A stretch of 41,152 nucleotides of DNA from a virus (Duplodnaviria; Heunggongvirae; Uroviricota; Caudoviricetes): the IMG/VR virus record IMGVR_UViG_2703718810_000001, positions 1-41,152 of that record, one strand, 5' to 3'. This document shows positions 441 through 40,084 of this stretch, piece after piece (the first letter of the stretch is position 1; each line of letters begins with the position of its first letter). A model generated the notes under the pieces. The model was not told the origin of the DNA. It was given only the letters and a program-made list of their open reading frames with translations, and did no database searches. Position numbers and translations under genes: made by a program.

Positions 441-455
441 TGGTGTCCCCTGCAG
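441..455. repeat. attL core (TGGTGTCCCCTGCAG)
   Basis: Exact 15-bp copy of the sequence at 40070-40084, which is the 3' end of argW; lies just upstream of torI. Confidence 0.7.
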
Positions 456-528
456 ACATCTACTTCAAGCAGCAGGGGATTGATTGGAATGGTGTTTTTT
501 AGATGTGAGAAATATTTTACCCGCTATT

Positions 529-729
529 TTACCCATTAGCGCGGCTTAAGAGCTTATTTTTGAATTCACAATGGTCACGATATAACCATCTTGCTCGCCC
601 GTGGATAACTTTGGCTTTTGGCAGGTCGCCGGACTTAATCCGGTCGTAGATGAAGGTTTTACCGAAGCCAGTATCAGCCATGATGAATTTCAGATCAACC
701 AGTGAATCAGGCTGTAGTTCGTGTTGCAT
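529..729 (-). CDS. torI: Excisionase / Tor inhibitor TorI (AlpA-family DNA-binding protein)
   Basis: 66-aa translation matches K-12 TorI as recalled (KplE1 excisionase); sits next to attL. Confidence 0.8.
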   Translation of the reverse strand: MQHELQPDSLVDLKFIMADTGFGKTFIYDRIKSGDLPKAKVIHGRARWLYRDHCEFKNKLLSRANG

Positions 730-853
730 GAGTGCTATCTCCGAATAGGGAATCGAACCTGCAAATCAGGCAATAAAAAACCGCATTGATGCGGCGATGG
801 TAGGTCTGGATATCTTGAGAAATGAACAGGCCTCATCGAGTGTGAGGCTGTGG

Positions 854-1225
854 TTAGTCCTTGCGTAGCTCGCTGATTCTTCTGTAAGTCTCTGGTGCTT
901 TGTTTCCGTGTATCTTCATTTCAGACTTCAACAGAGCAACGAGGGGATCCCATTCGTTGAGGATGCCTTTGAATGCCGGAACGCGCTTTGCAACCTTGTC
1001 GAATGAATCTCTGATTTCTGGAATCTGCTCGACAAGTGCAACGCATCGCCGGAAATCTGCTGCGTCATGTGGAGCGCCGAAGTGATGACCATAGATATTC
1101 TTTTTCAGTCCACATGCGATTGAGGCAAGAGTTGCGCTACTGATGCCTACATCACCAGTTGATTGCCATTTCAAAACCTTCATAGCCAAATCTGACATTT
1201 CTTGTCTCCAATAAAAAACCGCCAT
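854..1225 (-). CDS. hypothetical phage protein (123 aa)
   Basis: ORF in the leftward early operon; ATGA start/stop overlap with the upstream 55-aa ORF. Confidence 0.55.
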   Translation of the reverse strand: MAVFYWRQEMSDLAMKVLKWQSTGDVGISSATLASIACGLKKNIYGHHFGAPHDAADFRRCVALVEQIPEIRDSFDKVAKRVPAFKGILNEWDPLVALLKSEMKIHGNKAPETYRRISELRKD

Positions 1226-1392
1226 CAGGCGTCTTGGTGTTCTTTCAGTTCTTCAATTCGAATATTGGTTACGTCTGCATGCGCTATCTGCGCCCATATC
1301 ATCCAGTGGTCATAGCAGTCATTGATGTTCTCTGCTTCGATAACTCTGTTGAATGGTTCTCCATTCCATTCTCCTGTGACTCGGAAGTGCAT
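1225..1392 (-). CDS. hypothetical small protein (55 aa)
   Basis: Hand-translated ORF below the 60-aa cutoff; ATG at 1392, stop TGA at 1225-1227 overlapping the next start. Confidence 0.4.
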   Translation of the reverse strand: MHFRVTGEWNGEPFNRVIEAENINDCYDHWMIWAQIAHADVTNIRIEELKEHQDA

Positions 1393-1472
1393 TTATCATC
1401 TCCATAAAACAAAACTCGCCGTAGCGAGTTCAGATAAAAGAAATCCATCAATTGGTTAGGGTTTTTGTAATT

Positions 1473-1658
1473 CTACGAATTATGTTGTTTTTTAGCTTCA
1501 GCTTTCCATTCATCAAAGGCAGTGTCTTTGTTCATGGTGCTGATATTGATCTTACGGTCAATATCATATACACGCCACTCACCGTTAGGCCTCTCTTCGC
1601 ATCTAACTAAGTATGAATTGCCATTAATATCTATGCGTCTGTCTATTTGCATGAACAT
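1473..1658 (-). CDS. hypothetical small protein (~61 aa)
   Basis: ORF 1473..1664 begins with TTG; ATG at 1658 has AGAGGA upstream. Start uncertain. Confidence 0.45.
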   Translation of the reverse strand: MFMQIDRRIDINGNSYLVRCEERPNGEWRVYDIDRKINISTMNKDTAFDEWKAEAKKQHNS

Positions 1659-1778
1659 TTTCAATTTTCGAATCCTCTTTAATATGCATTTTTTGCTATT
1701 TCAGTAGTTTACTATTGATGAGGCGTTATTATACACACTTCATTAATGCAAGCATCTTTATGCTATGCTACTAATTTA

Positions 1779-2057
1779 TCAATTGATATTCACCTTTATC
1801 GCGTATACCTTTACCGGATTCTCACCAAAGTGCGGATGCGTTATTACCTTGATTTCATATCCGTCATACGGAACATCAATTCTGCGGCTGGAATCGTCGC
1901 GCTTCGGATATCCCTTTGTGATAATCAGGCGGTCATATTCCCGGAACATAATTCGCTTATTCCAGTAGTCATTACACAGGCGATACTCTTCCGTTTTCTC
2001 CCCGCGAATCATGGCATCGAAGTATTCACCTTTGACGGCAAGTTGCAGGTTAGCCAC
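1779..2057 (-). CDS. hypothetical phage protein (92 aa)
   Basis: GTG start preceded by AAGGAGG about 6 nt upstream; part of a tightly packed operon. Confidence 0.55.
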   Translation of the reverse strand: MANLQLAVKGEYFDAMIRGEKTEEYRLCNDYWNKRIMFREYDRLIITKGYPKRDDSSRRIDVPYDGYEIKVITHPHFGENPVKVYAIKVNIN

Positions 2058-2334
2058 GACCTTCCTCCTTTGGCTTGTGAATTTGTATCGTCATGCCGCT
2101 TTGAGTGGTGACTACAATGACAGAACCAGCCTGAAGGCTGTTAAGATTGAATGCTTCGTAAAACGAATCCAATGCCAGTGCTTTTTTATTCTTCCGGTTC
2201 CACCAACGCCATCCCTTGCTACAGGCTACACTGACAATCCACTGTCCACTCCTGTAAGCCATATAAAACCAGATGAGCAAAACCTGAAGGAAGGCTATCC
2301 AGTCAATAATCGTATATTTCGCGAAGGCGTCCAT
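2050..2334 (-). CDS. hypothetical membrane protein (94 aa)
   Basis: Hydrophobic stretch IIDWIAFLQVLLIWFYMAY; TAATG overlap with the upstream Lar-like gene. Confidence 0.5.
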   Translation of the reverse strand: MDAFAKYTIIDWIAFLQVLLIWFYMAYRSGQWIVSVACSKGWRWWNRKNKKALALDSFYEAFNLNSLQAGSVIVVTTQSGMTIQIHKPKEEGRG

Positions 2335-2630
2335 TACTTCACCTCCTGCGGAGTAGCCTTTACAAGCACTGGTGTAAATCCATCTTCATTAAGGTTATGA
2401 ATATAGACTTCTGTTCTCCTGCGCTCTTCAACGTTTAATATTGTTTCTGGATCATAAACCCATACTTTCATTCGACTATTCCATGAAGAAATCGCTTCAG
2501 ATCTAGTTCGTTTTTCTGGTCCTTGGGCACCACATTTGCATGACACATAGCGCATTTTCCCTCTGATACTGAATGAGTATCCGATGTTAAGCACAGTGGA
2601 ACCACAGAATGGGCAGCGATATAGATTCAT
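2334..2630 (-). CDS. Lar-family restriction alleviation protein (zinc ribbon)
   Basis: CPFCGS...CKCG...WN motif typical of the Lar family; ATGA overlap with the upstream gene. Confidence 0.6.
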   Translation of the reverse strand: MNLYRCPFCGSTVLNIGYSFSIRGKMRYVSCKCGAQGPEKRTRSEAISSWNSRMKVWVYDPETILNVEERRRTEVYIHNLNEDGFTPVLVKATPQEVK

Positions 2631-3160
2631 AAATCATCCACCTTAGGCGCAGCTGAGACAGCAACATTCCAGAACTCAGAAAACATATTGTATGCACCAG
2701 ATAGATTGGAAGTGGCATACCCTCCAAGCTCACTTCTAATCTGAACGGCTCTCATCATTTCCGGGGTTAACTCCTTCGGCACCATAACCCAACCATCCGG
2801 AATGACCGGAGAGTTGCCATTTATATCGAAGTTTGGCTCTGCGTCCTGAACCAGGAGGATGTAACCATTCTTGGCAGTATCAAGTTCTAACGCCTCGGTG
2901 ACGGTGCCGAAATAGCGATTACCTAAATCAGCATCACAAGTGCTTACATCAATGGAAACTTCCATACCCTCGATTAATTCTGGCAAGTTGTAAGTCTGGC
3001 TTACAGGTTCTGCACTATCAGCTTCGCGCCGCTTCTGTAGCTCTGCTGCCATTGCTCTCACGACTTCAACTGGTGCCCTTGCAGCAAACTCTATGTTGGT
3101 GATCAGCTCATTAAGATATTGCTCGCTGGGATACTGTTTCTTATTGGTAATAGTGGTCAT
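2627..3160 (-). CDS. hypothetical phage protein (177 aa)
   Basis: Long ORF with ATGA coupling at both ends. Confidence 0.6.
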   Translation of the reverse strand: MTTITNKKQYPSEQYLNELITNIEFAARAPVEVVRAMAAELQKRREADSAEPVSQTYNLPELIEGMEVSIDVSTCDADLGNRYFGTVTEALELDTAKNGYILLVQDAEPNFDINGNSPVIPDGWVMVPKELTPEMMRAVQIRSELGGYATSNLSGAYNMFSEFWNVAVSAAPKVDDL

Positions 3161-3366
3161 GTGTTAATCCTCAAAACTTTATGCCCGGGCGCAAAAGTAC
3201 GTGTTTTGTCTTTGCTTATTCGCCACCCGTCTTTACGGGCCTCTTTTGCACAACCAGACCATGACGTACCGATATACTCACCGAAGTCTGGCACTGGATA
3301 TACACCTTCCGTACACTGGCGACAATCACAATAGAGATGCATGGTGTAACTTGCGGCAATAGCCAT
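3157..3366 (-). CDS. hypothetical Cys-rich small protein (~69 aa)
   Basis: ATG at 3366 sits 1 nt after the Ea22-like stop; CDCRQC motif. ORF tool start at 3396 is probably too far upstream. Confidence 0.45.
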   Translation of the reverse strand: MAIAASYTMHLYCDCRQCTEGVYPVPDFGEYIGTSWSGCAKEARKDGWRISKDKTRTFAPGHKVLRINT

Positions 3367-3367
3367 A

Positions 3368-4396
3368 TCAGTCTCCTTTGATGCGAATACCAGCAAGCCA
3401 GTTTCTTATGCCGATATATTCAGCGTTCCTGAAACCGCTTTTTACATATATAAATGGCAAGCGAAGATTGTGACCATTGGCTGCCAGGTAGTCTTTACAA
3501 CCCTGTTCGGTGAAACAGCAGGTAACGAATTCATCAATATCTTTCACAGCAACGCGCCGCCATTTTTCTGGTGGCTCCCGAAAGTTTTCATGAAGTAGTT
3601 CGAGACGACGACTTTGGAGTTTATTGGCTTCATTGCCATCTTCATCAACCCAGACAATCCGGTCATAGTCATAATCAGCATCAACAACGATTTCGCGCTT
3701 TTGATACACACAAAACATAGGATCTGACGTTATTCGATTATCCTGTGTTCGAATATTTTCACCGATGATGCCAAACGAATCTGGTGCAGATTTTGTCTGC
3801 ATCTCTTCGATACGTTCAGCCATCGCAGCACACTCTTCAAAGTTGCTTAATGCTTTTCGCTCCCATTCGGCGCATTGTTTTTCCAGTTCTGCTATGTGCT
3901 TACTTCCATCTGCGATTACTCCCTCGTAATACTCGCGTTGTTCATTGAGTTTTGCTCTCACCTCCTCAAGCTCAACGCGCAGCCTCCCTGCCGTTAGCGC
4001 AATATCCTCGTTCTCCTGGTCGCGGCGTTTGATGTATTGCTGGTTTCTTTCCCGTTCTTCCAGAAGCGCCAGCACAATATGTGGCGTTATCAAGGACTTA
4101 AATTCGTCAACAGCTTGTTCGCCTCGCTTGTAATTCTTAATCCCACCTAAATTTTTCGCGTTCTGTGCCGCCTCACGCAGTGCCTGATAGTCAATCTCGC
4201 TCACTGGTTGCCTCCTTTGCTCGCTGATTCCACTCTGCTCTAACCTCTGAATAAAAAATCGCGCAGTCATTTCCAGGCGCTGCATATTTGCTACCAGATT
4301 GAGCGCGACACGTACCGCATCGAACGAAATAGAATCGACCGCCAGAGCCATATTCAGGGTGATCTGCTTCGCTGGCAACGTGCGCTGCGCCGCCAC
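3368..4396 (-). CDS. Ea22-like early protein (coiled-coil); start uncertain
   Basis: Long ORF with a coiled-coil central region; GTG start at 4396; 5' end overlaps the Lar-like ORF in another frame. Confidence 0.55.
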   Translation of the reverse strand: MAAQRTLPAKQITLNMALAVDSISFDAVRVALNLVANMQRLEMTARFFIQRLEQSGISEQRRQPVSEIDYQALREAAQNAKNLGGIKNYKRGEQAVDEFKSLITPHIVLALLEERERNQQYIKRRDQENEDIALTAGRLRVELEEVRAKLNEQREYYEGVIADGSKHIAELEKQCAEWERKALSNFEECAAMAERIEEMQTKSAPDSFGIIGENIRTQDNRITSDPMFCVYQKREIVVDADYDYDRIVWVDEDGNEANKLQSRRLELLHENFREPPEKWRRVAVKDIDEFVTCCFTEQGCKDYLAANGHNLRLPFIYVKSGFRNAEYIGIRNWLAGIRIKGD

Positions 4397-4424
4397 AGAA
4401 TGGACATGGTAGTAGGTTGCTCAT
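4191..4424 (-). CDS. Lar-like zinc-ribbon protein (77 aa)
   Basis: LPCPFCGG...CGTC...WNQRA motif; ATG at 4424 forms an ATGA overlap with the upstream stop. Confidence 0.5.
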   Translation of the reverse strand: MSNLLPCPFCGGAAHVASEADHPEYGSGGRFYFVRCGTCRAQSGSKYAAPGNDCAIFYSEVRAEWNQRAKEATSERD

Positions 4425-4915
4425 GAATGCACTCCCTCGTGAAGCTGTTCCGCACAATGCAGCAGGGCGTCAGTCGCCTCTTTCACCGTAACGCAGTCGC
4501 CATCGTCCAGCCCGGACACCGACGCGTGCTTAACGAACGCCGCGCAAAGGTCATCAAAAGCCTTAGCCCGGACTTCAGCCAGGAAAGCATCGGTGGCTGG
4601 GGTGTCTGATTGCATAGACTTTGCGCGATAGTCATTCCACCCTCTTGCATACATGGGATTAACTTGCACTCCATCTTTTACGCAATATGCCTGCCCTCCA
4701 CGGTTGATAACCTTGATTTCGTCCATAGCGCCAGACTTCAGCCCCGCATTCTCCGCAGCCAGCGCCGCGCATTTAGCTTCAAGTTCAGCAAATTTACGCA
4801 CCAGATATTCAGCGTTTGTTTCGTTAACCTTTAAATCTCGTGGGATGCATTTACCTTTCAGAAAACCATCCATCTCAATTAGTGTCATTTGTTTCATTTT
4901 TTTCCACTCCGCCAC
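4421..4915 (-). CDS. hypothetical phage protein (164 aa)
   Basis: ORF in the early operon; several in-frame Met near the N-terminus, start uncertain. Confidence 0.55.
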
Positions 4916-5058
4916 ATCGCATTCAGATATTTGTTGTCATTAACAGAACCGAAACTCTTTCTTTTAAGCAATTCCTCTCTCGATGGCATTGGCTTTACGC
5001 GTTGGCGAATAATCATTTCTGCCGGAAGAATGCCGGGATTGTATGCAAGTCCTCTCAT
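4894..5058 (-). CDS. hypothetical small basic protein (~54 aa)
   Basis: ATG at 5058 with GAGGAA about 7 nt upstream; longer ORF-track version overlaps neighbours. Confidence 0.35.
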
Positions 5059-5068
5059 GGAAAATTCC

Positions 5069-5365
5069 TCAGTCATTACTGATAGCGCCATAGCGTGAGC
5101 GGTAATTACGCAGGCGCGGGTCGATATATTCAGGGAAGTGGGTATATGTGGCTTTGCGGAATGGTCGGATTGATGTCTGGTAAATTCGCTCGCGTTCTTC
5201 TTTCTCTGCAAGCCATATACAATGGCGAAATTCCTTTTCCTCTTTCGTTTCCTGCGGTAGCGACATTATCCGATCGTAGTTTTTTCTGAATTTATCCAGC
5301 ACCTCCGATACGGAATTGCCGGAACAGCGGCGCGCGTCGTCCGCACCATACAGAGGCGCTGGCAT
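5069..5365 (-). CDS. hypothetical phage protein (98 aa)
   Basis: ATG at 5365 with AGGA upstream. Confidence 0.55.
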
Positions 5366-5388
5366 AATGGAATCCTTATGTTGCTACT

Positions 5389-5772
5389 TTAGAAGGGAAT
5401 TGAATCGTCGTATTCAGGATGATTTTGATGATTGCTACTTAGCTGCTGTTGGCTGTTTCCTGAAGTTGCAAATCCAATCTTTGCATTCAGTAATTCAAGA
5501 GTGATTGATTGACCATTTTGCCCCTGATAAACATCAACCCTGATGTTTTCTCCGGTAATTTCTACAATGCCACCTTCAACAAGAACACTACGGTAGTAAT
5601 CCGCTTGCGCTCCCGGCTTGGCAAATACAACGGCGCTGTAGTTTGTCCATTCTTTCTTTTTTGTCTGGCGATCGTAATACTGAACGCCAGCACGGATGTT
5701 GAATCCGATATTTTCCCCGGTCTGAAACTCTCTTGCGGGCTTGTTTAGTCTTACAGTAATCGAATGTGCCAT
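5389..5772 (-). CDS. ssb: phage single-stranded DNA-binding protein (SSB-like)
   Basis: C-terminus ends in DDSIPF, the SSB acidic tail; ATG at 5772 overlaps the erf stop (TAATG). Confidence 0.65.
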   Translation of the reverse strand: MAHSITVRLNKPAREFQTGENIGFNIRAGVQYYDRQTKKKEWTNYSAVVFAKPGAQADYYRSVLVEGGIVEITGENIRVDVYQGQNGQSITLELLNAKIGFATSGNSQQQLSSNHQNHPEYDDSIPF

Positions 5773-6377
5773 TAAGCAGCAGCTCCTTCTAATTCGTCTC
5801 GTCTGATGTTGTAAACGTCCTGCGCTTTGTGCTGCTCCGGTGTGCCTTCGAGCATCTTCCACGCTTTGGCGAACGCCTGTTTAAGCTCTTCTACGGTGTT
5901 TTTCTGCATTGCTGCGTCAGTGAATGCTTTTAGAACCTGTTCAGGTGTAGGTGATGGTTTTGATTGCTTTGCTGCTGCGTTCTGCTGATGTTTATGCTCG
6001 TCGGTATCTGCATCTTTCGCATCATCAATGCCGAATAAACCATTGAGGCAATACTTGCGTGCATAAGAGCTTGTAGCTCCCGTAACTTGTGCAGAATCCA
6101 TTCCTTTCTTGCTTTCTTCCTCTCGTGCAAGAGCGGTTGCCGTATGACTGTTTTCGCCATCGGTAATAGTTGCCGTGGCTTTCACGTAATACCGATCACC
6201 AATCAACACAACTTCATCGCTGATTGATAAAAACAGGCCATTCAGTAGCGGCTTAACGCCTTCAAGAATGTCTTCGCAGCTTCTGTATTTATATTTACCG
6301 AATGAGTTGTACTGATTCTTTGGCGCGTTCAGATTCTCCTGAATAGCTGCCAGTCTTGCGTAAAATTCTTTGCTCAT
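5772..6377 (-). CDS. erf: ERF-family single-strand annealing protein
   Basis: Translation from MSKEFYARL matches P22 Erf as recalled; ATG at 6377, ORF-track start at 6407 is TTG. Confidence 0.75.
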   Translation of the reverse strand: MSKEFYARLAAIQENLNAPKNQYNSFGKYKYRSCEDILEGVKPLLNGLFLSISDEVVLIGDRYYVKATATITDGENSHTATALAREEESKKGMDSAQVTGATSSYARKYCLNGLFGIDDAKDADTDEHKHQQNAAAKQSKPSPTPEQVLKAFTDAAMQKNTVEELKQAFAKAWKMLEGTPEQHKAQDVYNIRRDELEGAAA

Positions 6378-6478
6378 ATGTTTGTTCTCAGAATGGACAT
6401 TCCCCAAGGAAATAACGCTGATTTAATACTTCGACTCGGGACAAATTAAGGCATACCCGCATTCCTTCGCGGTCGCCA

Positions 6479-6592
6479 TTATGGCGATACCAGAGAGCTT
6501 TCTGCGTGTACATGCGTCTCTGTAACTTGCTCTCCTTCACTGTGGTTGCAAGTGACATGAATATCTCCTTCGTTACCGATTAATTCTTTCAT
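6479..6592 (-). CDS. possible small ORF (37 aa) between kil-like and erf
   Basis: Hand-translated; no convincing RBS; sits where P22 has arf. Weak. Confidence 0.2.
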   Translation of the reverse strand: MKELIGNEGDIHVTCNHSEGEQVTETHVHAESSLVSP

Positions 6593-6632
6593 CTGACGAA
6601 TGAATTCTTCGTCTGACCAGTTATCTGTAAAA

Positions 6633-6785
6633 CTCATTTCCTGCGATACCACGGAAGGTTGATAGCTGATTTCATCGCTTTATTTGCTTCAAGCCACATT
6701 TTTGAATCACCAATAAATCTGGCTATTACTGCTTTGTTTTGTGCCGCACGAAGCATCTGGTGATTAATGGCTATTTCATTGCGCA
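6633..6785 (-). CDS. kil: Kil-like small protein (50 aa)
   Basis: Hand-translated MRNEIAINHQMLRAAQNKAVIARFIGDSKMWLEANKAMKSAINLPWYRRK; FIGD.KM motif resembles lambda Kil as recalled; located just after cIII. Confidence 0.4.
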
Positions 6786-6905
6786 TAACGCCTCCAGTTG
6801 TTTCTTTGCTGCTCTGATTAATTGTTTAACTCGGCGTGATAATTCAGATTCGTGCGGGTAGAAAGCGGACATGACGCCGCTACCCGCGAGCTGAAAGTGC
6901 ATCAT
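6771..6905 (-). CDS. cIII: CIII-like protein (FtsH inhibitor)
   Basis: MMHFQLAGSGVMSAFYPHESELSRRVKQLIRAAKKQL resembles lambda CIII; ATG at 6905 with AAGGAG 7 nt upstream. Confidence 0.6.
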   Translation of the reverse strand: MMHFQLAGSGVMSAFYPHESELSRRVKQLIRAAKKQLEALCAMK

Positions 6906-7131
6906 GGGTAACTCCTTATATTTGATTGCATAACGAAAACGCCTCGAGTGAAGCGTTATTGGTATGCATATAAAAAGGCCCTCACACTGGAGGGCAAAGA
7001 AGATTTCCAATAATCAGAACAAGTCGGCTCCTGTTTAGTTACGAGCGACATTGCTCCGTGTATTCACTCGTTGGAATGAATACACAGTGCAGTGTTTATT
7101 CTGTTGTTTATGCCAAAAATAAAGGCCACCA

Positions 7132-7383
7132 TCAGGCAGCCTTGTTGTAAATGTTGCAGGTATCAAGTAAGTAATTAGATGGAGCGCCATAAATTATGAA
7201 TTCATCGTTTGTCGGGTCCATCTCCATCTCTTGGCCTATTGCCATTCTTGCGTCAGTGTCATCAGAGGCGAAGCATAAAACAGCCCACGCACCCATTGTT
7301 TTAAAAAGAACTGCAATTGGCTGTGGTTTTACTGAATTTGCGTTAGCGCGAAAATCACAAATCGCACTTTCATGAAACTCCAT
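7132..7383 (-). CDS. hypothetical early protein (83 aa)
   Basis: ATG at 7383 with GAGGTG upstream. Confidence 0.55.
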   Translation of the reverse strand: MEFHESAICDFRANANSVKPQPIAVLFKTMGAWAVLCFASDDTDARMAIGQEMEMDPTNDEFIIYGAPSNYLLDTCNIYNKAA

Positions 7384-7437
7384 ATCTCACCTCAAATAAG
7401 TGGTTTGCTGCGAAAGTAAATACGCTTAAGTTACCTG

Positions 7438-7575
7438 TTATTTATCCCACCAAGTTCCGTATCTATCTATCCAGTTACACCAATCATCGACACTCCATTT
7501 TGTTGTGTCGCATTTTGGCAATTGACATGAATATCTACCTTCTTTGTAAAGTCGGCGTTTGACTTTCTTGAGCAT
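7438..7575 (-). CDS. hypothetical Cys-rich small protein (45 aa)
   Basis: ATG at 7575 with GAGGT 5 nt upstream, 8 nt after the N stop. Confidence 0.4.
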   Translation of the reverse strand: MLKKVKRRLYKEGRYSCQLPKCDTTKWSVDDWCNWIDRYGTWWDK

Positions 7576-7582
7576 GACTACC

Positions 7583-7888
7583 TCAATCGTAATAAGCTGG
7601 AATTGATTTTCCGCGTTGTTTCTGGCGACCAACACAAGTCACCCCCATTTCACTGCGTGGCTTGCGGTAGTAAATACGGTTCTGTTTACGCTCGACTTCT
7701 TCTGCCTTCTTGCAGCGAAGGCTTCCGAGTGATGCTGCTTTATCTGCTCTGACGCAACCAGAGAGCTTTAGCGCAATTTTTCGCGCCAGTCGCTGCTCTT
7801 GCATTGCCTGTTCACGTTGAGCCTGTCTGCGTGCTCTGCGGCGATTTCTGGCGTTATCGTCAGCCAGATATGTAATGACTACTGTCAT
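7583..7888 (-). CDS. N: N-like transcription antitermination protein
   Basis: Arg-rich N-terminus (NARNRRRARRQAQ) and C-terminus ...VTCVGRQKQRGKSIP resembling lambda N; first gene downstream of pL. Confidence 0.7.
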   Translation of the reverse strand: MTVVITYLADDNARNRRRARRQAQREQAMQEQRLARKIALKLSGCVRADKAASLGSLRCKKAEEVERKQNRIYYRKPRSEMGVTCVGRQKQRGKSIPAYYD

Positions 7889-7943
7889 GTTGACCTCCGA
7901 TGAAACAACTTTGGAATTTTTTTTATTACAAAGTGGTTTCCTT

Positions 7944-10115: not shown

Positions 10116-11063
10116 ATGAGCAATACAGCAAAAATCTACGATTTCAGCGCCGCACACGAGCGCAGGAGCAACAGGATGGAGAACCAGAAAACTGGTTACA
10201 TTCCGTTGTACCGGAGCATTCTGAAACAGTCATGGGCGAAAGATGTTTATCTTCGCACCCTGTGGGAAAACCTTCTCCTGAATGCCGCCAGAAAGCCATA
10301 CAAAGCGAATTTCAAAGGTCATGAATGGCATCTGCAACCCGGTCAACTGGTTGTGACAGCAGCTGATTTAGGTCTTCAGTTATGCGACAGGCATGGCAAG
10401 CCAGCAAGCCGCGATCAGGTTGAGCGGATGCTTCAGGTTTTTGTGAAAGAGGGGATGATCTCCATTGATGGAGAGAAGCAAAAAGGTCGTGTGATTACCA
10501 TCACAAATTACCATGAATATGCTCAAAAAATGGACAATTCACCCGCACATGAAGCCGCACAAACAACCGCACATGATGCCGCACATGATGAAGCCAGTAA
10601 TGGCGCGGCTTTCAGCGTACATGCCACACATGAAAGCGCACATGAAGCCGCACAAACAACCGCACATCATGAACAAGAAGGTATTAACAAGAATATAAAT
10701 AATACCCCCCTACCCCCCAATGGGGGAGGCGATGGGCAGGTTAAACCTGAACGTCGCAAGGCAGAACGAATCGACTACGAATCCTTCCTGAACGCCTACA
10801 ACACCGAAGTCGGTGACAGACTTCCACATGCTGTTGCGGTCAACGAGAAACGCAAACGCCGCCTGAAGAAAATCATCCCGCAACTGAAAACGCCAAACGT
10901 GGACGGTTTCAGAGCGTATGTCAGGGCGTTTGTGCATCAGGCCAAGCCGTTTTACTTCGGAGACAACGACACGGGCTGGACGGCAGATTTTGATTACCTG
11001 CTGAGGGAAGATTCGTTAACGGGAGTTCGGGAAGGGAAGTTTGCAGACAGGGGGATTGCATGA
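10116..11063 (+). CDS. replication initiation protein (O / gp18-like) with internal iteron repeats
   Basis: Position between c1 and the helicase; repeated [10 protein letters not shown] peptide encoded by DNA iterons; start overlaps the upstream stop. Confidence 0.65.
10543..10710. repeat. candidate ori: GCACATGA(A/T)G iterons plus adjacent AT-rich segment
   Basis: At least six copies of a ~12-bp repeat at 10543-10672, then AT-rich ATTAACAAGAATATAAATAATA; lambdoid origins lie inside the initiator gene. Confidence 0.45.
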
Positions 11064-13453
11064 AACAGGATATCGAAGCGAGCGTTATCGGTGGCTTGCT
11101 GATTGGTGGATTAACACCAACTGCCAGTGACGTTCTGGCAACGCTTGAGCCGGAAGCGTTTTCAATTCCGCTCTACCGGAAAGCCTTCGAGGTTATCCGC
11201 AAGCAGGCGCGAAACAGAAACCTAATCGACGCGCTGATGGTTGCCGAGGCGTGCGGAGAGGAGCATTTCACGTCAATCCTGATGACCAGCAAAAACTGCC
11301 CGAGTGCCGCAAACCTGAAGGGATATGCCGGAATGGTCGCGGATAACTATCACCGCCGTCTGGTGCTGGAAATCATGGATGAAATGCGTGAACCAATTCA
11401 GAGCGGAACCATCGACGCATCGAGTCAGGCGATGGATGAACTTGTAAAGCGTCTCTCAGCCATCAGAAAGCCCCGTGACGAGGTTAAACCGGTACGCTTA
11501 GGGGAAATCATCACTGACTACACCGACACGCTTGACAGGCGTCTGAGGAACGGAGAAGAGTCCGATACCCTGAAGACCGGAATCGAAGAACTTGACGCTA
11601 TCACCGGAGGGATGAACGCAGAAGACCTGGTGATAATCGCTGCTCGTCCTGGTATGGGGAAAGCAATGGCGCTAAGCGAAGGGATTTTACTTGCAGATGG
11701 CACCTGGACTACTCACGGAGAAGTCAAAATTGGCGATCGCATCGCGTCAATAGACGGGCTTCCTTCGGAGGTAATTGGCGTCTTCCCGCAAGGGAAGAAA
11801 TTCACATATTTAGTCACCTTTGAAGACGGACGTAGCGTGAAATGTGCCGATAACCACTTATGGGAAATTTCATCATCAAGATTTACTGGTAAACGCGTTG
11901 TTGATACTGATGCGCTGGCTGGGATGCTACAAAAAACACGTTATCAGGGAAGAATAAGAGTGCCATCCTTGACCGGAGACTTTGGTAAAAATATTCCCCT
12001 TGATGGTTGGGTTATTGGGGCTCTACTTGGTGACGGTTCGTTGATAAAAGGCATCAAGTTCACCAACTCGGAAGAATATGTCCTGAGCCGCATGAGTGAT
12101 GCAATTGCACCACTGCGACTGGTTAAGGTAGGAGAGAATGATTATTTGATAAGCAACCAAAAAGGCCAGAAGAACCCACTATTGGACAAACTACGTGGCA
12201 TTGGGATGATCGGGAAAGGTGCGTCCGAGAAGGAAATCCCAGCAGAAATTTTTAGTGCTAGCAAAGAAATACGTACCGGTGTTTTAACTGGCCTTCTCGA
12301 GACAGATGGCTGGGTTGAGAAGTCCGGATGCATCCGCTTTAGTTCATCCAGTCAGAAATTAGCTAAAGGATTAGTAAGGCTTGTTAGATCTTTAGGTGGA
12401 ACCGCCAAAGAATCCAGCAGGACGGGAATAGTTTACACGTACAAAGGAGAGAAGCATGACGGACTTGATGCACACATGGTCAGCATGAAGTTGCCATCAT
12501 CTTTGATAGAGCAAATTCACTCACCACGTTTACGCAAAAATCTCGGGATTAACAGGCTTGGCGACCTTGGTGTGGGTATCAAATCGGTTGAAGTTGTTGA
12601 GCCAGAAGAGTGTCTCTGCATCATGGTAAGCCATCCTAGCCATCTCTATGTGACAACGGATTACATCGTTACGCACAATACGGAACTGGCGCTGAAGATT
12701 GCCGAAGGTGTTGCAAGCCGCGTTATTCCTGGTTCTGACGTCCGGCGCGGAGTATTGATTTTCTCAATGGAAATGAGCGCATTGCAGATTGCAGAGCGAA
12801 GCATTGCCAACGCCGGGAGGATGTCGGTTAGCGTGCTGCGAAATCCTGCATCGATGGATGACGAAGGCTGGGCGCGTGTTGCTAACGGCATGAGTCAGCT
12901 TGCAGATTTGGATGTATGGGTAGTCGATGCCTCGCGGTTATCGGTCGAAGAAATTCGCTCAATCGCAGAACGGCACAAACAGGAAAATCCAAACCTGTCA
13001 CTCATCATGGCGGATTATCTTGGCCTGATTGAGAAGCCGAAAGCAGATCGCAACGACCTCGCAATTGCTCACATCTCCGGAAGCCTGAAGGCGATGGCGA
13101 AAGACCTGAAAACGCCTGTTATCTCCCTGAGTCAGCTTTCGCGCGATGTTGAGAAGCGACCAAACAAACGCCCGACAAACGCAGATTTGCGTGATTCAGG
13201 AAGCATTGAGCAGGACGCAGACTCAATCATCATGCTCTATCGGGAAGCGGTATATGACGAGAACAGTAGCGCCGCGCCATTTGCTGAAATCATTGTGACG
13301 AAAAACCGTTTTGGCTCGCTTGGTACGGTTTACCAGCGGTTCTGTAACGGACACTTTGTTGCATGTGACCAGGATGAAGCCAGACAGATTTGCACAGCAT
13401 CAAATGCACCTGCTGCGCGTGGCAGACGATATGCACAAGGGGCTGACGTATGA
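11060..13453 (+). CDS. DnaB-family replicative helicase containing an intein
   Basis: DnaB motifs ARPGMGK...[35 protein letters not shown]; 797 aa versus ~460 for DnaB because of a ~339-aa insertion in the P-loop. Confidence 0.8.
11663..12679 (+). mobile_element. intein with LAGLIDADG homing-endonuclease domain, inserted between K and T of the Walker A GKT
   Basis: Insert starts at Ala202 and ends ...VTHN before Thr; LAGLIDADG-like motifs GALLGDGSL and GLLETDGWV; Trp (NHLW), Cys (EECLC), Thr (THN) fit the class 3 WCT pattern. Confidence 0.6.
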
Positions 13454-33382: not shown

Positions 33383-33404
33383 CACTGTAAGCCAAGGACG
33401 GCAT

Positions 33405-33971
33405 TTATTTTATAGTTTTTATGAATTCTTTATTAAATCCCTTAGCTTCTCCGGGGTATCTTCCAAAGACAATTTTTATAAAAACAGAAAAAATAAAGAT
33501 AGCAACGCTTAACAACAGTTGCAGTATCATTGGAACCCAAAGAACTACAGGCTCTATATTCATGAAACCAAATATTCTTCCGGCGATCATGGCGAAGTAC
33601 CACACTGTTATCAGCAAACTTAGTGGCATATGAATTACTGATATTACCAATCCAAGAGCATCAGTAATTCTATTTTCAAATTTTTCAGGGGAAAACTTTT
33701 CTTTAAGGTAATTCAGTGCGCAGGCCTCATTCTCTGGATTTTCAGCATTTTTCCCTATAGCAATAGAAATCTCAGATATCCTTGATTCAATTCTTTTTCG
33801 TTTAATAAAACTAGAAAAAAAGAACCACGCAATCTGCAACCCTATCCCCATAAATAGAGTTGCGGCAACTAGCACAGCGTAACTCATAGAATCAGACACA
33901 CCAACCTCTTTAGTTTTTCTAGTTACTTTGTCACGATAGGATATGCGAATTGATAAAACTAAATTGCGCAC
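33405..33971 (-). CDS. 3-TM inner-membrane protein, candidate superinfection-exclusion protein (SieA-position)
   Basis: Three predicted TM helices; AT-rich; occupies the position of sieA in P22 (between gene 16 and mnt). Start uncertain. Confidence 0.55.
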
Positions 33972-34116
33972 ATGATAACTCAGTAATAATTGTTAATGAA
34001 AACATGATCACCTATATTGCACAAGGCGAAACAGGAAGCATAATCTGGTTTCATGAGTGTGATCACGTTTGGGTAAATCAAAGTCAAGAGGAAATACTTG
34101 AAATTATCAAAAATAA

Positions 34117-34698
34117 CTATCTAAACGTTGCACACGACTCATCTATCCATTTTTCATAAAATTGTATACCGAGATAGGCAAGAACAGATGGATGTATATC
34201 AACAAGCTTTTCGCCAAGATGTTCTGTTGGAGGTGGATAATCTTTGCCTTGGTTTCTTACGGTTATAGGCATAGTTGTTGCTGGATGAAACTCAACTATC
34301 ATAGGGTCGCCTTCGTATTTTGCTATTTTCCCTGTTGAATCAATGATTAACTCTTTAATATAATGGCTTCTTGCTCCCGGAAATGCCCCAAGAGTAGTAT
34401 AAGGAGGTTCAAGTTTTGAGATTTCCATAGTGGAATGATGATCAGCATTTCTTGCTTGGTGAAGGTAAGCAAGTGTTTTGTCTGTTTTTCTAAGCATGAA
34501 CTTTTGGTTGAAGTGGCTGCTAAATTTTCCACTAACCGGCTTTGTTGCACAGAGCAACTTACTGAAAGACTTTTCTATATGCCCAAGACATTCTCGCCAG
34601 TGCATTTCAAAATCATCATGGTTTGTAGATGATTTCATCTGCTCTAGGCACTTTTTAGCTGCGATGATTTCTTTTTTTGCTGGGTTGTAATCGATCAT
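34117..34698 (-). CDS. hypothetical protein (193 aa) translationally coupled to mnt
   Basis: ATG overlaps the mnt stop (ATGA); AT-rich; no motif recognised. Confidence 0.6.
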   Translation of the reverse strand: MIDYNPAKKEIIAAKKCLEQMKSSTNHDDFEMHWRECLGHIEKSFSKLLCATKPVSGKFSSHFNQKFMLRKTDKTLAYLHQARNADHHSTMEISKLEPPYTTLGAFPGARSHYIKELIIDSTGKIAKYEGDPMIVEFHPATTMPITVRNQGKDYPPPTEHLGEKLVDIHPSVLAYLGIQFYEKWIDESCATFR

Positions 34699-34949
34699 TT
34701 TGCATCCTTGCCATACATGTTTTTAAGTGTCTCAAATACCACAGACTTGAACTGTTCAGCCTGCATCTCGGCTAATCGTTCAGCTTCATTGCGATAACCT
34801 TTTACAGGAGATGGTCTCGATAGAGCATCTTGGACGATTTGCAACAATTCTGAGTTCATTGATCTACCATTTGACTCTGCTCTGTATTTTAATTTTTCTC
34901 TTACTTCCAAAGGCATGCGGAAGTTAAAGTGCGGATCATCTCTAGCCAT
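34695..34949 (-). CDS. mnt: Mnt maintenance repressor (ribbon-helix-helix)
   Basis: Translation matches P22 Mnt as recalled. Confidence 0.85.
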   Translation of the reverse strand: MARDDPHFNFRMPLEVREKLKYRAESNGRSMNSELLQIVQDALSRPSPVKGYRNEAERLAEMQAEQFKSVVFETLKNMYGKDAK

Positions 34950-34971
34950 GCCATCACTCCAAGTTAGTGTA

Positions 34972-35023
34972 TTGACATGATAGAAGCACTCTACTATATT
35001 CTCAATAGGTCCACCGTGGACCT
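34972..35023. promoter_or_regulatory. immI control region: Pant with Oarc and Omnt operators
   Basis: TTGACA and TATATT with 17-bp spacer; ATGATAGAAGCACTCTACTAT between them; near-palindrome AGGTCCACCGTGGACCT at 35007-35023. Confidence 0.65.
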
Positions 35024-35039
35024 ATATTGTGAGGTGAAC

Positions 35040-35201
35040 ATGAAAGGAATGAGCAAAATGCCGCAGTTCAATTTGCGGTGGCCTAAAGAAGTATTGGATT
35101 TGGTACGCAAGGTGGCGGAAGAGAATGGTCGGTCTGTTAACTCTGAGATTTATCAGAGAGTAATGGACAGCTTTAAGAAGGAAGGGCGTATTGGCGCGTA
35201 A
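35040..35201 (+). CDS. arc: Arc repressor (ribbon-helix-helix)
   Basis: From [15 protein letters not shown]...; GAGGTG RBS; 53 aa. Confidence 0.85.
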
Positions 35202-35275
35202 AGTTGAAGCCCCAACTGCGGGAACAGTCAGGGCTTCTGTTGTCAGTAAATTCGTGGAGAAAAACCAACATGAAT
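35202..35275 (-). ncRNA. sar: possible sar-like antisense RNA region opposite the ant ribosome-binding site
   Basis: P22 has a small antisense RNA at the arc-ant junction; boundaries here are guessed, no promoter or terminator assigned. Confidence 0.25.
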
Positions 35276-36172
35276 AGTATAGCAATTTTAGAAGCAGTGA
35301 ACACCTCTTACGTACCTTTCAATGGTCAGCAGATTATCACCGCCATGACTGCCGGAGTTGCATATGTTGCGATGAAGCCAATCGTTGAAAACCTTGGAAT
35401 GAGCTGGTCAACGCAGCAAACAAAACTCATGAAGCAGATTAGCAAATTCAACTGTGTTCATATGAACATGGTTGCCGCTGATGGTAAGCTTCGTAAGCTA
35501 CTCTGCCTTCCTTTGAAGAAGTTAAATGGATGGCTGTTCAGCATCAACCCTGAGAAAGTTCGTGCTGACATCCGCGATAAACTGATTCAGTACCAGGAAG
35601 AATGCTTTACTGTGCTGCATGACTACTGGACGAAGGGAAAGGCAGAAAATGCACGTAAGAAAACATCTGTTGATGACAGGACTCCGCTTCGTGATGCTGT
35701 AAATATGCTAGTCAGCAAAAAGCATCTAATGTACCCAGAAGCTTATGCAATGATTCATCAGCGTTTCAACGTGGAAAGTATTGAAGAGCTTGATTCATCT
35801 CAGATACCGCAAGCAGTAGAGTACATCCACAGGGTAGTGCTTGAAGGCGAGTTCATCGGCAAACAAGAGAAGAAAACCAACGAGCTTTCTGCAAAAGAAG
35901 CAAACAGCCTTGTATGGTTATGGGATTATGCCAACCGCTCACAGGCATTATTCCGCGAACTGTATCCGGCGCTAAAACAAATTCAATCGAACTATTCCGG
36001 CAGATGCTACGACTACGGTCATGAGTTCTCGTATGTTATCGGAATGGCGAGAGACGTTTTAATAAACCACACACGAGATGTTGATATTAATGAGCCAGAC
36101 GGACCAACGAATCTCTCCGCATGGATGAGACTTAAGAATAAAGAATTGCCTCCTTCAGTACATAACTACTGA
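35270..36172 (+). CDS. ant: antirepressor Ant
   Basis: From [21 protein letters not shown]..., 300 aa; GGAG RBS; ORF-track start at 35204 is TTG. Confidence 0.8.
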
Positions 36173-36190
36173 CAGATAACCAACGCAACG

Positions 36191-36215
36191 ACCCAGCTTC
36201 GGCTGGGTTTTTTTA
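36191..36215 (+). terminator. rho-independent terminator after ant
   Basis: ACCCAGC-ttcg-GCTGGGT followed by TTTTTTT. Confidence 0.65.
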
Positions 36216-36350
36216 TGCCCAAAATTCACCGCAGCAACTAAGCGGCGATGGCCTTGATGGATAGCACTACGAAATTTTCGTAGTTCAAAAACCAAACAAA
36301 TACCAACCGTAGCCATGCTGCGGCGATTCCTTGTATCTGGAGCAAATTAA

Positions 36351-38279
36351 ATGACAGACATTACAGCCAATGTTGTGGTAAGCATGCCTTCGCAACTCTT
36401 CACTATGGCGCGTTCTTTTAAAGCCGTAGCCAATGGAAAAATTTATATCGGTAAAATTGACACTGACCCTGTAAATCCTGAAAACCAGATTCAGGTTTAT
36501 GTGGAGAACGAAGACGGCTCTCACGTTCCTGTTTCGCAACCAATCATCATTAATGCTGCTGGATATCCGGTATATAACGGACAGATTGCCAAATTCGTAA
36601 CTGTGCAAGGCCATTCAATGGCTGTATACGATGCGTATGGTGCGCAGCAGTTCTATTTTCCTAATGTGCTGAAGTATGACCCTGATCAGCTGGAGCAAAG
36701 ACTTTCAAGTACATCAGGAGCATCATTAATAGGTATAGATAAATATGGTACAATTGAGAATGCAATTAAATATTCAATAAAGTATGTAACACCAGAAATG
36801 TATATCTCACAGTCCTCAGACATAACCGAGGCTATTCAGATGGCAATTGATGATTGTGAGGTTGTATATATGGAACCTACCGACTACCTTATTGAAAGAA
36901 CCATAAATATACCTGATGGCAGGGTTATTTATCTTGGCGGATCAAAGTTAACAGCTTCTACAGGTAGTTCTCCTATATTTAAGTATAATGGGAAAAATAT
37001 CGGATTAACAATTTGGGGCGGCAGCTGCATTGTTACAGGAGCGGCAAGTGCATTCTTAGAGGCTGAAGGTGATAGCGACACACCTAGCAATGAAGACTAT
37101 ATTAAACAGATAAGACTTTACGGTGTTCATGTATCATCTTCAATGATAACATATGCGCTTTTGTTAAAAAAAGCAGTTCGTCAAATATTTATTGATTCCT
37201 GCATGTTTTATACCGTAAATGGGATTGTTTCATCAGGGAAAACAGTAGAGTTGGCTTGCAATAAGAGCATTGTATTTGGGGCGACAACGGCTACTGATAC
37301 TGTTGGAATTGGCATTTATAGTACTGGAACCGGTGGCCCTTATTATAATGAGGGATGGCATTTTACCGATTGCACAATAGATAATTTTGAAAGAACATTT
37401 GATGTCTCTGATATATATGTGTTAACTGTCAATGGTGGATTTATAGGAAATAACTCAAATACTGGATTTGCTATGTATTTTGGAGAGGGAAATACAACTC
37501 ATTGTAGAGAAATTAATGTTAATACAGTCATAGGAGGTAGGGTTAAGTTTAACAACGCCACTATCGAGAGATTGTGTCATGCAAAATTTAGCGGTGAGAT
37601 AACCTACTGCAAGGGTGGGAGTGGGGTGTGTTTTGCCATTGGCAATAATATATCTGCAGTTGATGTTATTGGTATGAAGTTTACAACTAATACAGGACAC
37701 GTTGTAGCAACTGTTGGTAATGGTTCTTCAAATATTCATTTTTCTGATATAAGCACAGACTCTTCACACATCTCTGGAATATTGTTTTCTGGCACCGATG
37801 GTGGTAATTGTTCAATATCAGACTTTTCATACTCAGGAGCAGGGGAGGCTTTATCACTTCCAAGGCCTGTTAAGCTTTCAAACGTACCAGTCATCGGTGT
37901 TGCTACACCTGTTTTTTCAATAAAAAATGATTTTGTATCTTCTAACAAGATAGTAGCAATAGGTTCAAATATAAATCAGTTGCAGATGACAATCGCTAAA
38001 GGTAGTAGAATTTCAATAAATATAAACATTTCTTACCTTGGTGGTGCTGGAAGCACGGCGCAAGTAATAGGAATTACTGCGCCAAGTGGTACTATACTTC
38101 CAAATGGCAGCAATAGTATGCAATTCACTCTTCCTGAGGCTAATGGAAGTGTTACTTTAAATGTAATTGCCTCAGTTTCTACTGATTTCATTAATGGATC
38201 TTTTACCATAGATAACAGGGCTGGGAATACATTAACTGTTATGCCCGGCTCTCATCTTTCAGTTACTCTATCGAATTGA
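36351..38279 (+). CDS. tailspike protein: conserved head-binding domain plus divergent receptor-binding domain
   Basis: First ~115 aa match the P22/HK620 tailspike N-terminus as recalled; remainder is AT-rich, Gly/Ser/Thr/Asn-rich and different. Confidence 0.8.
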
Positions 38280-38289
38280 TAAATATAAT

Positions 38290-38320
38290 AAACCTAGTGT
38301 TAATTATTATCACTAGGTTT
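38290..38320. terminator. bidirectional rho-independent terminator between tailspike and gtrA remnant
   Basis: AACCTAGTG-ttaattattat-CACTAGGTT hairpin with T-rich tracts on both strands. Confidence 0.55.
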
Positions 38321-38326
38321 ATTTTC

Positions 38327-38608
38327 TCACTCGCATTTCTTACTAAAATCAATTACAAATACAGTTTTATTATATTTTATGTCGTAAAATTCTGTAGAGG
38401 ATGTGCTATCAAATGAGCAATAAGTCGATGCTTTGAATGTGAATTTTGCATTCTCGAAGAAGCTAAAACTCATAGCCACAACGAAACCTGCGAAGTTCGC
38501 CATAGCTTGATTTGTATGCGCTGCATAGATACATACACCAAAAACCACCCAGTGTATAAGTGTGTTCAGTACACCAATTGAGGTGTACCTTGCAAATATA
38601 TTTAACAT
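38327..38608 (-). pseudogene. gtrA: truncated gtrA (bactoprenol-linked glucose translocase) remnant
   Basis: First ~60 aa match K-12 GtrA/YfdG as recalled, then diverge and stop at 93 aa; no gtrB or gtrC follows. Confidence 0.55.
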
Positions 38609-38750
38609 TTATTTAATCAATGAGTTCTGAAAGGCATGAAGTCTATCATCCAAGTCTCAATCGATCGATGACTTGCTATGGTTGATGAGACAAACAAAGT
38701 TTTGTACTGGATTGCAAGGCTTTGTGCTCTTCGATAGTGGTTAAGGTGGA

Positions 38751-39908
38751 TCACTCCACCTTTTCATCAAGCCAGTCCGCCCACCACTGCATCATTTCTC
38801 TGCGCTTATCGAGATACTGAGCATGGTTGTAAATTCCACGTACAGATCCGCCGTTGGCATGTGCCAGTTGCACTTCAATGGCGTCGGCAGGCCATTCGTG
38901 CTCGTTCATAATTGTGCTGAATTCATGCCTGAATCCGTGACCGCTTTCCAGACCCTCATAGCCGATTTGTTTGATCACAAGCAATACCGCGTTCTCGCAG
39001 ATTGGCTTCTTCTTATCGTTGCGACCGGCAAAAACAAACTCTGATACTGGTTTAGTGATTGAGCTTAGCGTAGTGAGAAGTTCAACCACCTGGTCTGACA
39101 TAGGAACCACATGAATTTTGCGACCCTTCATCACACTGGCGTCGATGGTGATAATCCTGTTTTCAAAATCGACGTTCTTCCATTGCATGGAACGAAGCTC
39201 TTTCGTTCTTAGGGCTGTATAGCGTAAAACCTTGGTCGCAATGAGCGATACGATGCTTCCTGAAAATGTTGCCAGTGCTTTGTTAAATGCCGGGATCTGG
39301 TCTGCAGGAAGAAACGGGAAGTTTTTCTTGCGGTATCCCTTCATGGCGTCAGCAAGGTCAGGTGCCGGGTTATATTTAGCCCTACCAGTGACAATAGCGT
39401 AACGGAAAACCTCGCCACATCTTCTGCGTGCTTTGTTGGCTCGCTCCATTGCACCGCGATCTTCAAATCTGCGGATTACTTCCAGCAGTTGCATCGGCTC
39501 AATATCCTGAATCTCAAGACCGCCGATGATGGGTAAAATGTCGTCATCAAACATTTTGGCAAGTTCAGTTGCATAGCCTACTGACCAGACTTGCTTCTTG
39601 TGCTCGTACCATTCCTTGTAAATCGCACTAAATGAATTGTTGTTAGACGAAGCCTTTTTCGCCTTTACCGGATCGATGCCAACCGAGATGTCTTTCCTCG
39701 CAGTCCATGACTTATCCCTTGCTTCCTGCAAAGTCATAAGCGGATATTTTCCGACGGTCAGGATTTTCTCTTTACCGTCAATCTTGTAGCGAAGCTGCCA
39801 TACCTTTTTCCCGGATACAGGAACATAAAGGTACAGGCCATTACCATCGAGAAGGCGGTATGGTTTTTCTTTCGGCTTTGCTGCTTCAATCTGCTTAACG
39901 GTGAGCAT
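38751..39908 (-). CDS. intS: tyrosine integrase (IntS-like)
   Basis: Translation from MLTVKQIEAAKPKEK matches K-12 IntS as recalled; adjacent to argW. Alternative GTG start at 39944. Confidence 0.85.
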   Translation of the reverse strand: MLTVKQIEAAKPKEKPYRLLDGNGLYLYVPVSGKKVWQLRYKIDGKEKILTVGKYPLMTLQEARDKSWTARKDISVGIDPVKAKKASSNNNSFSAIYKEWYEHKKQVWSVGYATELAKMFDDDILPIIGGLEIQDIEPMQLLEVIRRFEDRGAMERANKARRRCGEVFRYAIVTGRAKYNPAPDLADAMKGYRKKNFPFLPADQIPAFNKALATFSGSIVSLIATKVLRYTALRTKELRSMQWKNVDFENRIITIDASVMKGRKIHVVPMSDQVVELLTTLSSITKPVSEFVFAGRNDKKKPICENAVLLVIKQIGYEGLESGHGFRHEFSTIMNEHEWPADAIEVQLAHANGGSVRGIYNHAQYLDKRREMMQWWADWLDEKVE

Positions 39909-40069
39909 GGGTAAAAATCCGGTGGGTAAAATTATTTTATCCACTTTTTACCCGTCATGGAGTGCGGCTGTCAACGATCTGAAGCGAACCATGACGAACT
40001 ATGAATCTACGGAAGGCTTGATATTAAGGGGATTTTGCGGACTGGTACGGATGGGAGCGAACTGATAAA

Positions 40070-40084
40070 TGGTGTCCCCTGCAG
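40070..40084. repeat. attR core (TGGTGTCCCCTGCAG), 3' end of argW
   Basis: Exact copy of 441-455. Confidence 0.7.

Follow-up and report, generated by a model that had tools for sequence, protein, structure and literature searches.

The integration system that the cryptic prophage KplE1 of Escherichia coli K-12 shares with the phages HK620 and Sf6 operates at the tRNA gene argW, and combines the integrase IntS with TorI, an excisionase or recombination directionality factor (RDF). HK620, Sf6, CUS-3 and other argW prophages are reported to carry the module in a highly conserved form, TorI being 100% identical to HK620 HkaC and Sf6 P18 (PMC2951348, PMC3509656). In KplE1, five TorI sites (I1–I5), with the pentamers GTTCG, GATCG and GTCCG, lie in two blocks on the int-side arm of the attachment region; the IntS arm-type sites share the sequence TAAA and are overlapped by a sigma-70 promoter, PintS (TTGACA / TAaAAa; PMC2951348). 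The published length of the attachment (att) core is 16–17 bp (PMC2951348; PMC8787464), the authors of the Kapi1 study counting 17. In Kapi1, the phage attachment site (attP) lies between int and xis, and these genes are thus found at opposite ends of the prophage (PMC8787464). The DNA analysed here, referred to below as the window, is a stretch of 41,152 nt (positions 1 to 41,152 of the IMG/VR virus record IMGVR_UViG_2703718810_000001, Caudoviricetes). A preliminary description, made from the sequence, had placed the ends of a prophage at a 15-bp direct repeat at argW, with the excisionase and integrase genes at opposite ends. These ends are correct, and the integration system is an already known one, of the KplE1/HK620/Sf6 type. 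Positions 456–40069 are almost certainly a P22-like temperate phage genome, integrated in the 3′ end of argW by IntS-mediated site-specific recombination between attP and the bacterial site, attB.

Prophage ends and the unoccupied argW locus

The 15-mer TGGTGTCCCCTGCAG was present exactly twice in the window, on the plus strand in both cases (Table 1), and no further copy was found in the window when up to two mismatches were permitted. Shuffled sequences contained a mean of 0.06 matches, and two copies were reached in none of the 100 shuffles made. The right copy forms the terminal 15 nt, CCA included, of argW, the single tRNA gene that ARAGORN detected in the window. The preliminary description had proposed a search for a longer imperfect extension around the cores; the similarity proved to cover only 20 nt (441–460 versus 40070–40089, 90% identity), and the outer sides of the two copies showed no similarity when compared.

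A comparison with an argW locus lacking a prophage, proposed in the same description, showed that the junction coincides exactly with the repeat. In E. coli ARS-C101, the unoccupied locus has the order cscB, 440 bp, argW, yfdC, and positions 1–455 joined to 40085–41152 differ from it by 2 mismatches in 1523 bp, with no gaps. Since this match is gap-free, the prophage junctions lie exactly at TGGTGTCCCCTGCAG: positions 456–40069 are all insert, and nothing to the left of 441 is phage-derived. Phage genes were looked for to the left of 441 and none was found; positions 1–440 correspond to the intergenic region between cscB and argW in unoccupied strains, and no open reading frame (ORF) at least 55 aa long is present in them. 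In ARS-C101 they lie directly downstream of an oligosaccharide MFS transporter gene (cscB). Thousands of complete E. coli genomes match positions 1–455, with the match ending at 455 under a tRNA-Arg annotation. On the other side, yfdC also adjoins argW in both the empty site and K-12.

Apart from its short length, nothing suggests that TGGTGTCCCCTGCAG was duplicated by chance, or that it belongs to a generic class of tRNA-related repeats unconnected with integration. The shuffles and the position of the empty-site junction both argue against this, as does the identity of TGGTGTCCCCTGCAG to the published att core (PMC2951348, PMC8787464), and the probability of such a coincidence is close to nil. 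Integration in the 3′ end of argW with a duplicated core CTGCAGGGGACACCA(T), as published in those two studies, is what was found here. The repeat is 15 bp long, rather than 16–17 bp, only because the left flank is of the csc type: the base preceding the core is a C here, versus an A on the dsdC-side flank of K-12, where the core measures 16 nt. The presence of either a csc (sucrose) or a dsdC left flank is a known polymorphism of the argW region, and shifts the apparent length of the repeat (15, 16 or 17 bp) from strain to strain.

The window contains a second exact repeat at argW, the 16-mer GGAATCGAACCTGCAA (749–764 and 40084–40099), which is one base longer than the outer repeat and lies inside it on the left. 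If the true ends were at this inner repeat, the phage would include neither torI nor the 15-bp repeat, and both would have to be host or remnant DNA. The GenBank record of CUS-3 is drawn in this way: it labels GGAATCGAACCTGCAA as 'attR core' (CP000711, 40192–40207) and stops there, leaving torI and the 15/16-nt core outside the record. However, the empty site lacks positions 456–748, which hold torI and the adjoining arm, and passes from 455 straight into argW; the virion genomes of Sf6 and HK620 include torI, with the 15/16-nt core located between torI and int. Further, recombination at the inner repeat would strip argW of its 3′ T-stem and acceptor strand, and the contiguous product of such recombination was found in no IMG/VR contig. 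Ends at the inner repeat are thus highly improbable and, judged by the empty-site result, the boundary of the CUS-3 record is probably mis-set. The inner 16-bp argW repeat accounts for that record ending before torI, and is a trap for automated att-site callers that rely on repeats.

The integration module and attP

The genes torI and intS lie just inside the left and right cores (at 74 and 161 nt, respectively), as had been proposed. Over its full length, TorI matched PDB 1Z4H, 'Tor inhibition protein' (E 6.6e-43). A Pfam search returned no match for TorI at E ≤ 1e-3, and its identification is therefore based on the exact match to K-12 TorI (Table 1) and on 1Z4H. IntS has the arm-binding, central and catalytic domains Arm-DNA-bind_3 (PF13356), Phage_int_M (PF22022) and Phage_integrase (PF00589); its relatives are present in 546 IMG/VR contigs, and a search for related loci returned only copies with 99–100% identity. 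A torI-annotated match covering at least 80% of positions 400–900 was present in 717 of 5,426 complete E. coli genomes. In one torI locus (H108), a match ending at the start of torI reflects an IS911 insertion.

An attP rebuilt from the right arm, core and left arm, in that order, was identical to the attP region of phage Sf6 at 501 of 521 positions (96%). In the Sf6 record the attP core is flanked by int (gene 16) and by the gene for the TorI homologue (gene 18), and HK620 is annotated likewise. The proposed location of attP in the circular phage, with the excisionase gene on one side and the integrase gene on the other, is borne out by these matches; in the integrated state, intS therefore adjoins argW, and torI is found at the far end.

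The definitions of the IntS and TorI sites were taken from PMC2951348. The arm-type repeat GGGTAAAA occurred six times in the window, versus 0.87 expected, and five of the six copies were within the two att arms. The segment 39909–39953 is identical to that of K-12; the whole int-side arm plus core (39909–40084) is identical at 172 of 176 positions, and the torI-side region (441–800) at 348 of 360. The PintS promoter overlaps one arm-type site and one TorI site. The inverted repeat formed by TCCCCTGC and GCAGGGGA is kept, with a spacer of 9–22 nt, in all the modules compared (HK620, Sf6, g341c, Klebsiella and Erwinia, with E. coli and Salmonella included).

The junction positions, the protein and site identities and the attP reconstruction come from the present analysis. 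For catalysis, regulation and TorR inhibition, the published work on KplE1 and HK620 serves as a guide. By analogy, IntS would recombine the phage attP with the bacterial attB, the exchange taking place within the shared TGGTGTCCCCTGCAG. The phage would provide argW with a new 3′ end at the right junction, the original 3′ end being displaced to the left junction. Transcription of intS would start from its own promoter, inside the attachment arm, and would be repressed by both IntS and TorI; excision would require the binding of TorI to the GTTCG-type pentamers of the int-side arm.

The TorI protein encoded here is identical in sequence to that shown to bind and inhibit TorR (PMC3509656). The published anti-TorR activity was seen only with overproduced TorI, torI being carried on a multicopy plasmid; in vitro, IntS outcompetes TorR for TorI binding (PMC3509656). 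The torR gene lies outside the window. Crosstalk with TorR in this lysogen, as suggested in the preliminary description, is plausible by analogy.

Table 1. Attachment-site features, integration genes and flanking host sequences, by position in the window
Feature	Position	Strand	Basis
Host left flank, cscB-argW intergenic region (csc-type argW neighbourhood)	1..440		Identical to unoccupied ARS-C101 locus
Left att core, displaced 3′ end of argW; attR in KplE1 papers	441..455		Exact 15-mer; empty-site match ends at 455
Inverted repeat TCCCCTGC...GCAGGGGA, linking core to phage-side arm	446..479 (arms 446–453 / 472–479)		Read in sequence
Prophage body, 39.6 kb, P22-like lambdoid genome	456..40069		PHROGs/Pfam annotation; absent from empty site
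Two IntS arm-type repeats GGGTAAAA on torI-side arm (515–22, 527–34), overlapping torI 3′ end	515..534	-	Motif count; TAAA as in PMC2951348
torI, excisionase (RDF) and TorR inhibitor, 66 aa	529..729	-	66/66 identical to K-12 TorI
Second argW T-arm copy TTGCAGGTTCGATTCC; core GGTTCGATTCC at 749–759, TorI pentamer GTTCG at 754–758	749..764	-	Exact 16-mer shared with argW 40084–40099
Intrinsic terminator upstream of motif and torI; counterpart of t'I in phage 434	780..795	-	Terminator scan
intS, tyrosine integrase, 385 aa; start codon ATG, following the K-12 annotation	38751..39908	-	383/385 identical to K-12 IntS
IntS arm-type repeats GGGTAAAA on int-side arm (39909–16 +, 39924–31 +, 39946–53 -); GGATAAAA at 39935–42	39909..39953		Motif count
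PintS promoter: -35 TTGACA 39969–74, -10 TAAAAA 39945–50	39945..39974	-	Sequence of experimentally mapped K-12 promoter (PMC2951348)
Five predicted TorI-binding pentamers: GATCG 39975–79, GTTCG 39985–89, GTTCG 39995–99, GTCCG 40038–42, GTTCG 40058–62	39975..40062	-	Same pentamers and two-block layout as published
Right att core, 3′ end of reconstituted argW; attL in KplE1 papers	40070..40084		Repeat search, ARAGORN, empty-site comparison
argW, tRNA-Arg(CCT), intact	40070..40144	-	ARAGORN; Rfam tRNA 63.4 bits
Host right flank, yfdC (formate/nitrite transporter family)	40220..41152	-	Pfam Form_Nir_trans

A second argW T-loop copy upstream of torI

The left copy of GGAATCGAACCTGCAA corresponds to the T-loop and 5′ T-stem of argW, and lies 18 nt upstream of the torI ATG, between torI and an intrinsic terminator; a homologous hairpin appears in the record of phage 434 as terminator t'-I. 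The 16-mer is also present in KplE1, Sf6, HK620 and MS6192. The T-loop motif was found in 15 of 33 RDF loci from different species, and also in phages g341c, Midgardsormr38 (two tandem copies) and phiEt88; the RDF of the latter is only 36–39% identical to TorI, and its arm repeats differ. Every motif-bearing locus in which the core could be located had an argW-type core.

When 14 lineages were aligned from -70 to +150, the motif stood out as the most conserved 12-column block (94% mean identity), and upstream of it nothing aligned. The pairwise identity of the motif 12-mer in these lineages was 0.90, versus 0.57–0.62 at the codon third positions of the adjacent genes and 0.38–0.41 in the immediate flanks, and its distance to the ATG was 17–18 nt in 12 of the 14. 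No conserved RNA structure was detected at the motif (RNAalifold found 0 pairs over 12 lineages, and a single-sequence fold gave z = -0.64), nor did a consensus scan find a sigma-70 promoter there. The cII site and pI promoter of the HK620 record were considered as an explanation and rejected, as they need TTGC boxes that are absent from most motif-bearing lineages.

From its conservation the motif appears to be constrained, although unexplained. The sequence (A)GGTTCGATTCC(C), at positions 749–760 on the minus strand, is tentatively proposed as a functional control element of the RDF gene in the argW-targeting IntS/TorI-type modules of many Enterobacterales, a proposal that is possible rather than probable. 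If it has such a function, the motif would most likely act as a TorI operator, given that the published pentamer GTTCG forms part of it; a second option is an attB-like half-site for the core-binding domain of the integrase. Two observations run against a TorI operator: the conservation reaches beyond the pentamer, and the motif persists in phiEt88, the int-side arm of which has no GTTCG boxes. The motif does not seem to be essential, because it has apparently been deleted in Dryocola and in one Enterobacter lineage. The authors of the KplE1 study call PtorI 'non-characterized', and in their view excision is controlled through RDF expression (PMC2951348). The T-loop-like GTTCG motif is thus a candidate regulatory site at the control point of excision named in the KplE1 literature and, whether operator or half-site, it would imply feedback control at PtorI, those authors' master switch of excision.

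A different origin for the inner 16-mer was also considered, because in argW the 16-mer is contiguous with the core: a torI cassette (an insertion of 293 bp) could have split an ancestral 30-nt tRNA block. This was rejected. The attP side beside the core is itself a diverged T-loop (GATTCGATGTA joined to TGCAGGGG in Erwinia, versus GGTTCGATTCC joined to TGCAGGGG in argW), and the upstream element is therefore a second copy. This copy and the core overlap by 3–4 nt in Serratia, Pantoea and Edwardsiella, and the motif is conserved, not decaying. The contiguous 30-mer with a phage-side continuation was found in no IMG/VR contig.

Two further observations were made in the neighbourhood of the RDF gene. 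Between the terminator at 780–795 and a second, similar repeat at ~1209–1231 lies a 123-aa ORF (854–1225, minus strand; phrog_1229). The hairpin of the second repeat (CAATAAAAAACCGC...GCG, repeat family D9) was read by eye; on the minus strand, the terminator scan made no call there. The arrangement looks moron-like, and the homologous unit of phage 434 comes after xis (ORF114 and t'I). In Escherichia sp. E1V33, Pantoea stewartii and Yersinia alsatica, inspection by eye showed an apparent ORF start beyond the RDF-side core, preceded by a sequence containing GGTTCGAT. This ORF may encode an integrase, and tandem integrative elements may occupy a single tRNA gene in these strains.

The prophage genome and its relatives

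The early and regulatory genes of the insert include ea-type genes, Erf, SSB, N, cI (with an S24 peptidase domain), cro, cII, O, a DnaB-type helicase and Q. Lysis genes (holin, endolysin and Rz) and P22-type virion genes follow in the inventory, the latter comprising terS, terL, portal, scaffold, coat, tail accessory proteins of the gp4, gp10 and gp26 types, and three ejection proteins. After the ejection genes come sieA, immI with the sar RNA and ant, a tailspike gene with a P22 head-binding domain, a gtrA remnant and intS. The virion module is of the P22 (Lederbergvirus) type; ~61% of the late region aligns with P22, at 81.5% nucleotide identity. The nearest records (CUS-3, HK620-like, Gally, HF4s, Kapi1, IME10 and Dewey) each matched only ~45–60% of either half with 95–97% identity (megablast). 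The best records covered 57–61% of each half, and no phage record more than ~61%, partial matches that indicate mosaicism of the ordinary lambdoid kind. Judged by these annotations, the P22-like prophage is apparently complete and the phage probably viable.

The element could instead be a cryptic, non-inducible remnant like KplE1 of K-12. Prophages at argW often decay, KplE1 itself being reduced to 10.2 kb (PMC2951348, PMC9659370), and here the gtrA gene beside int is truncated, with gtrB and gtrC missing. However, the regulatory (N, cI, cro, cII, Q), replication, lysis, packaging, head, ejection and tailspike genes are all full-length ORFs, and the size of 39.6 kb fits that of Sf6, HK620 and Kapi1; a remnant is thus unlikely, though not so remote as the other alternatives considered. 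Three points weigh against an intact and functional integrated phage. Some erosion is evident, because the O-antigen conversion module has decayed to a truncated gtrA; a family-level annotation would not reveal point defects; and IntS carries the changes A67S and L242Q with respect to its K-12 counterpart, yet IntS sequences identical to that of the window are present in IMG/VR contigs.

Several regions of the insert deserve separate mention. The 93-aa ORF between the tailspike gene and intS (38327–38608, minus strand) matches only the first 63 of the 120 positions of the GtrA family. No gtrB or gtrC is present after it, leaving a decayed serotype-conversion module in the usual moron slot beside int. 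The P22-type immI/superinfection region (33405–36172) encodes a SieA-like exclusion protein (33405–33971, minus strand), the sar antisense RNA (35202–35269; Rfam 91 bits) and the antirepressor Ant (35204–36172). In the tailspike gene (36351–38279), the distal two-thirds (~36690–38280), which form the receptor-binding part, have a G+C content of ~38–41%. Among 5,426 complete E. coli genomes this part had no megablast-level match, and only the head-binding N-terminus matched; the PHROG match of the tailspike is partial, and is to a 'colanic acid degradation' tailspike. The distal part is possibly a rare host-range determinant.

The DnaB-type replicative helicase (11060–13453, plus strand, 797 aa) has its Walker A motif (GMGK/A...IVTHN/T) split by a 338-aa element (residues 203–540). 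This insert showed LAGLIDADG/Hom_end matches; its N-terminal Ala, Trp (NHLW), block-F Cys and T-H-N are features that we take to resemble those of class-3 inteins. The intein-bearing allele was found with 99.3% identity in 51 Stx2-phage records, in which it is annotated only as helicase or hypothetical. In addition, the O-like replication initiator gene contains, at 10544–10671, five copies of a CGCACATGAAGC-type repeat with a period of ~12 bp, presumably origin iterons as in lambdoid phages.

The value of these results lies in a correct annotation: the exact boundaries of the prophage, an intact tRNA gene, a probably viable P22-like phage and an unusual tailspike. With the cryptic K-12 prophage KplE1 (CPS-53), the element shares the target at the 3′ end of argW, the core, TorI (100% identity), IntS (99.5%), the five pentamers, the arm repeats and PintS. 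It differs in being a full 39.6-kb genome, whereas the 10.2-kb KplE1 remnant lacks cI and the virion genes, and in having a 15-bp repeat (csc-type flank) versus one of 16 bp (dsdC-type flank). The KplE1/HK620/Sf6-type module is defined also by excision dependent on IntS, TorI and IHF; in the element described here, such excision is predicted from the genes and sites. With the argW P22-like podoviruses Sf6, HK620, Kapi1 and CUS-3, the element shares the int-attP-RDF module, the P22-type virion gene order and the position of int beside the tailspike/conversion region (PMC8787464). It departs from these phages in the distal domain of its tailspike, in its intein-bearing helicase allele, which is otherwise found in Stx2 phages, and in having a decayed gtr module in place of oac, gtrABC or neuO. 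The Int-Xis systems of lambda and P22 are similar in having a heterobivalent tyrosine integrase, arm-type and core-type sites, and a small winged-helix RDF acting on repeated sites of one arm. However, their int and xis genes are adjacent, on one side of attP, and co-transcribed, whereas the int and RDF genes of the present module flank attP and would be transcriptionally uncoupled in the prophage, with intS expected to be repressed by both IntS and the RDF, as in KplE1 (PMC2951348).

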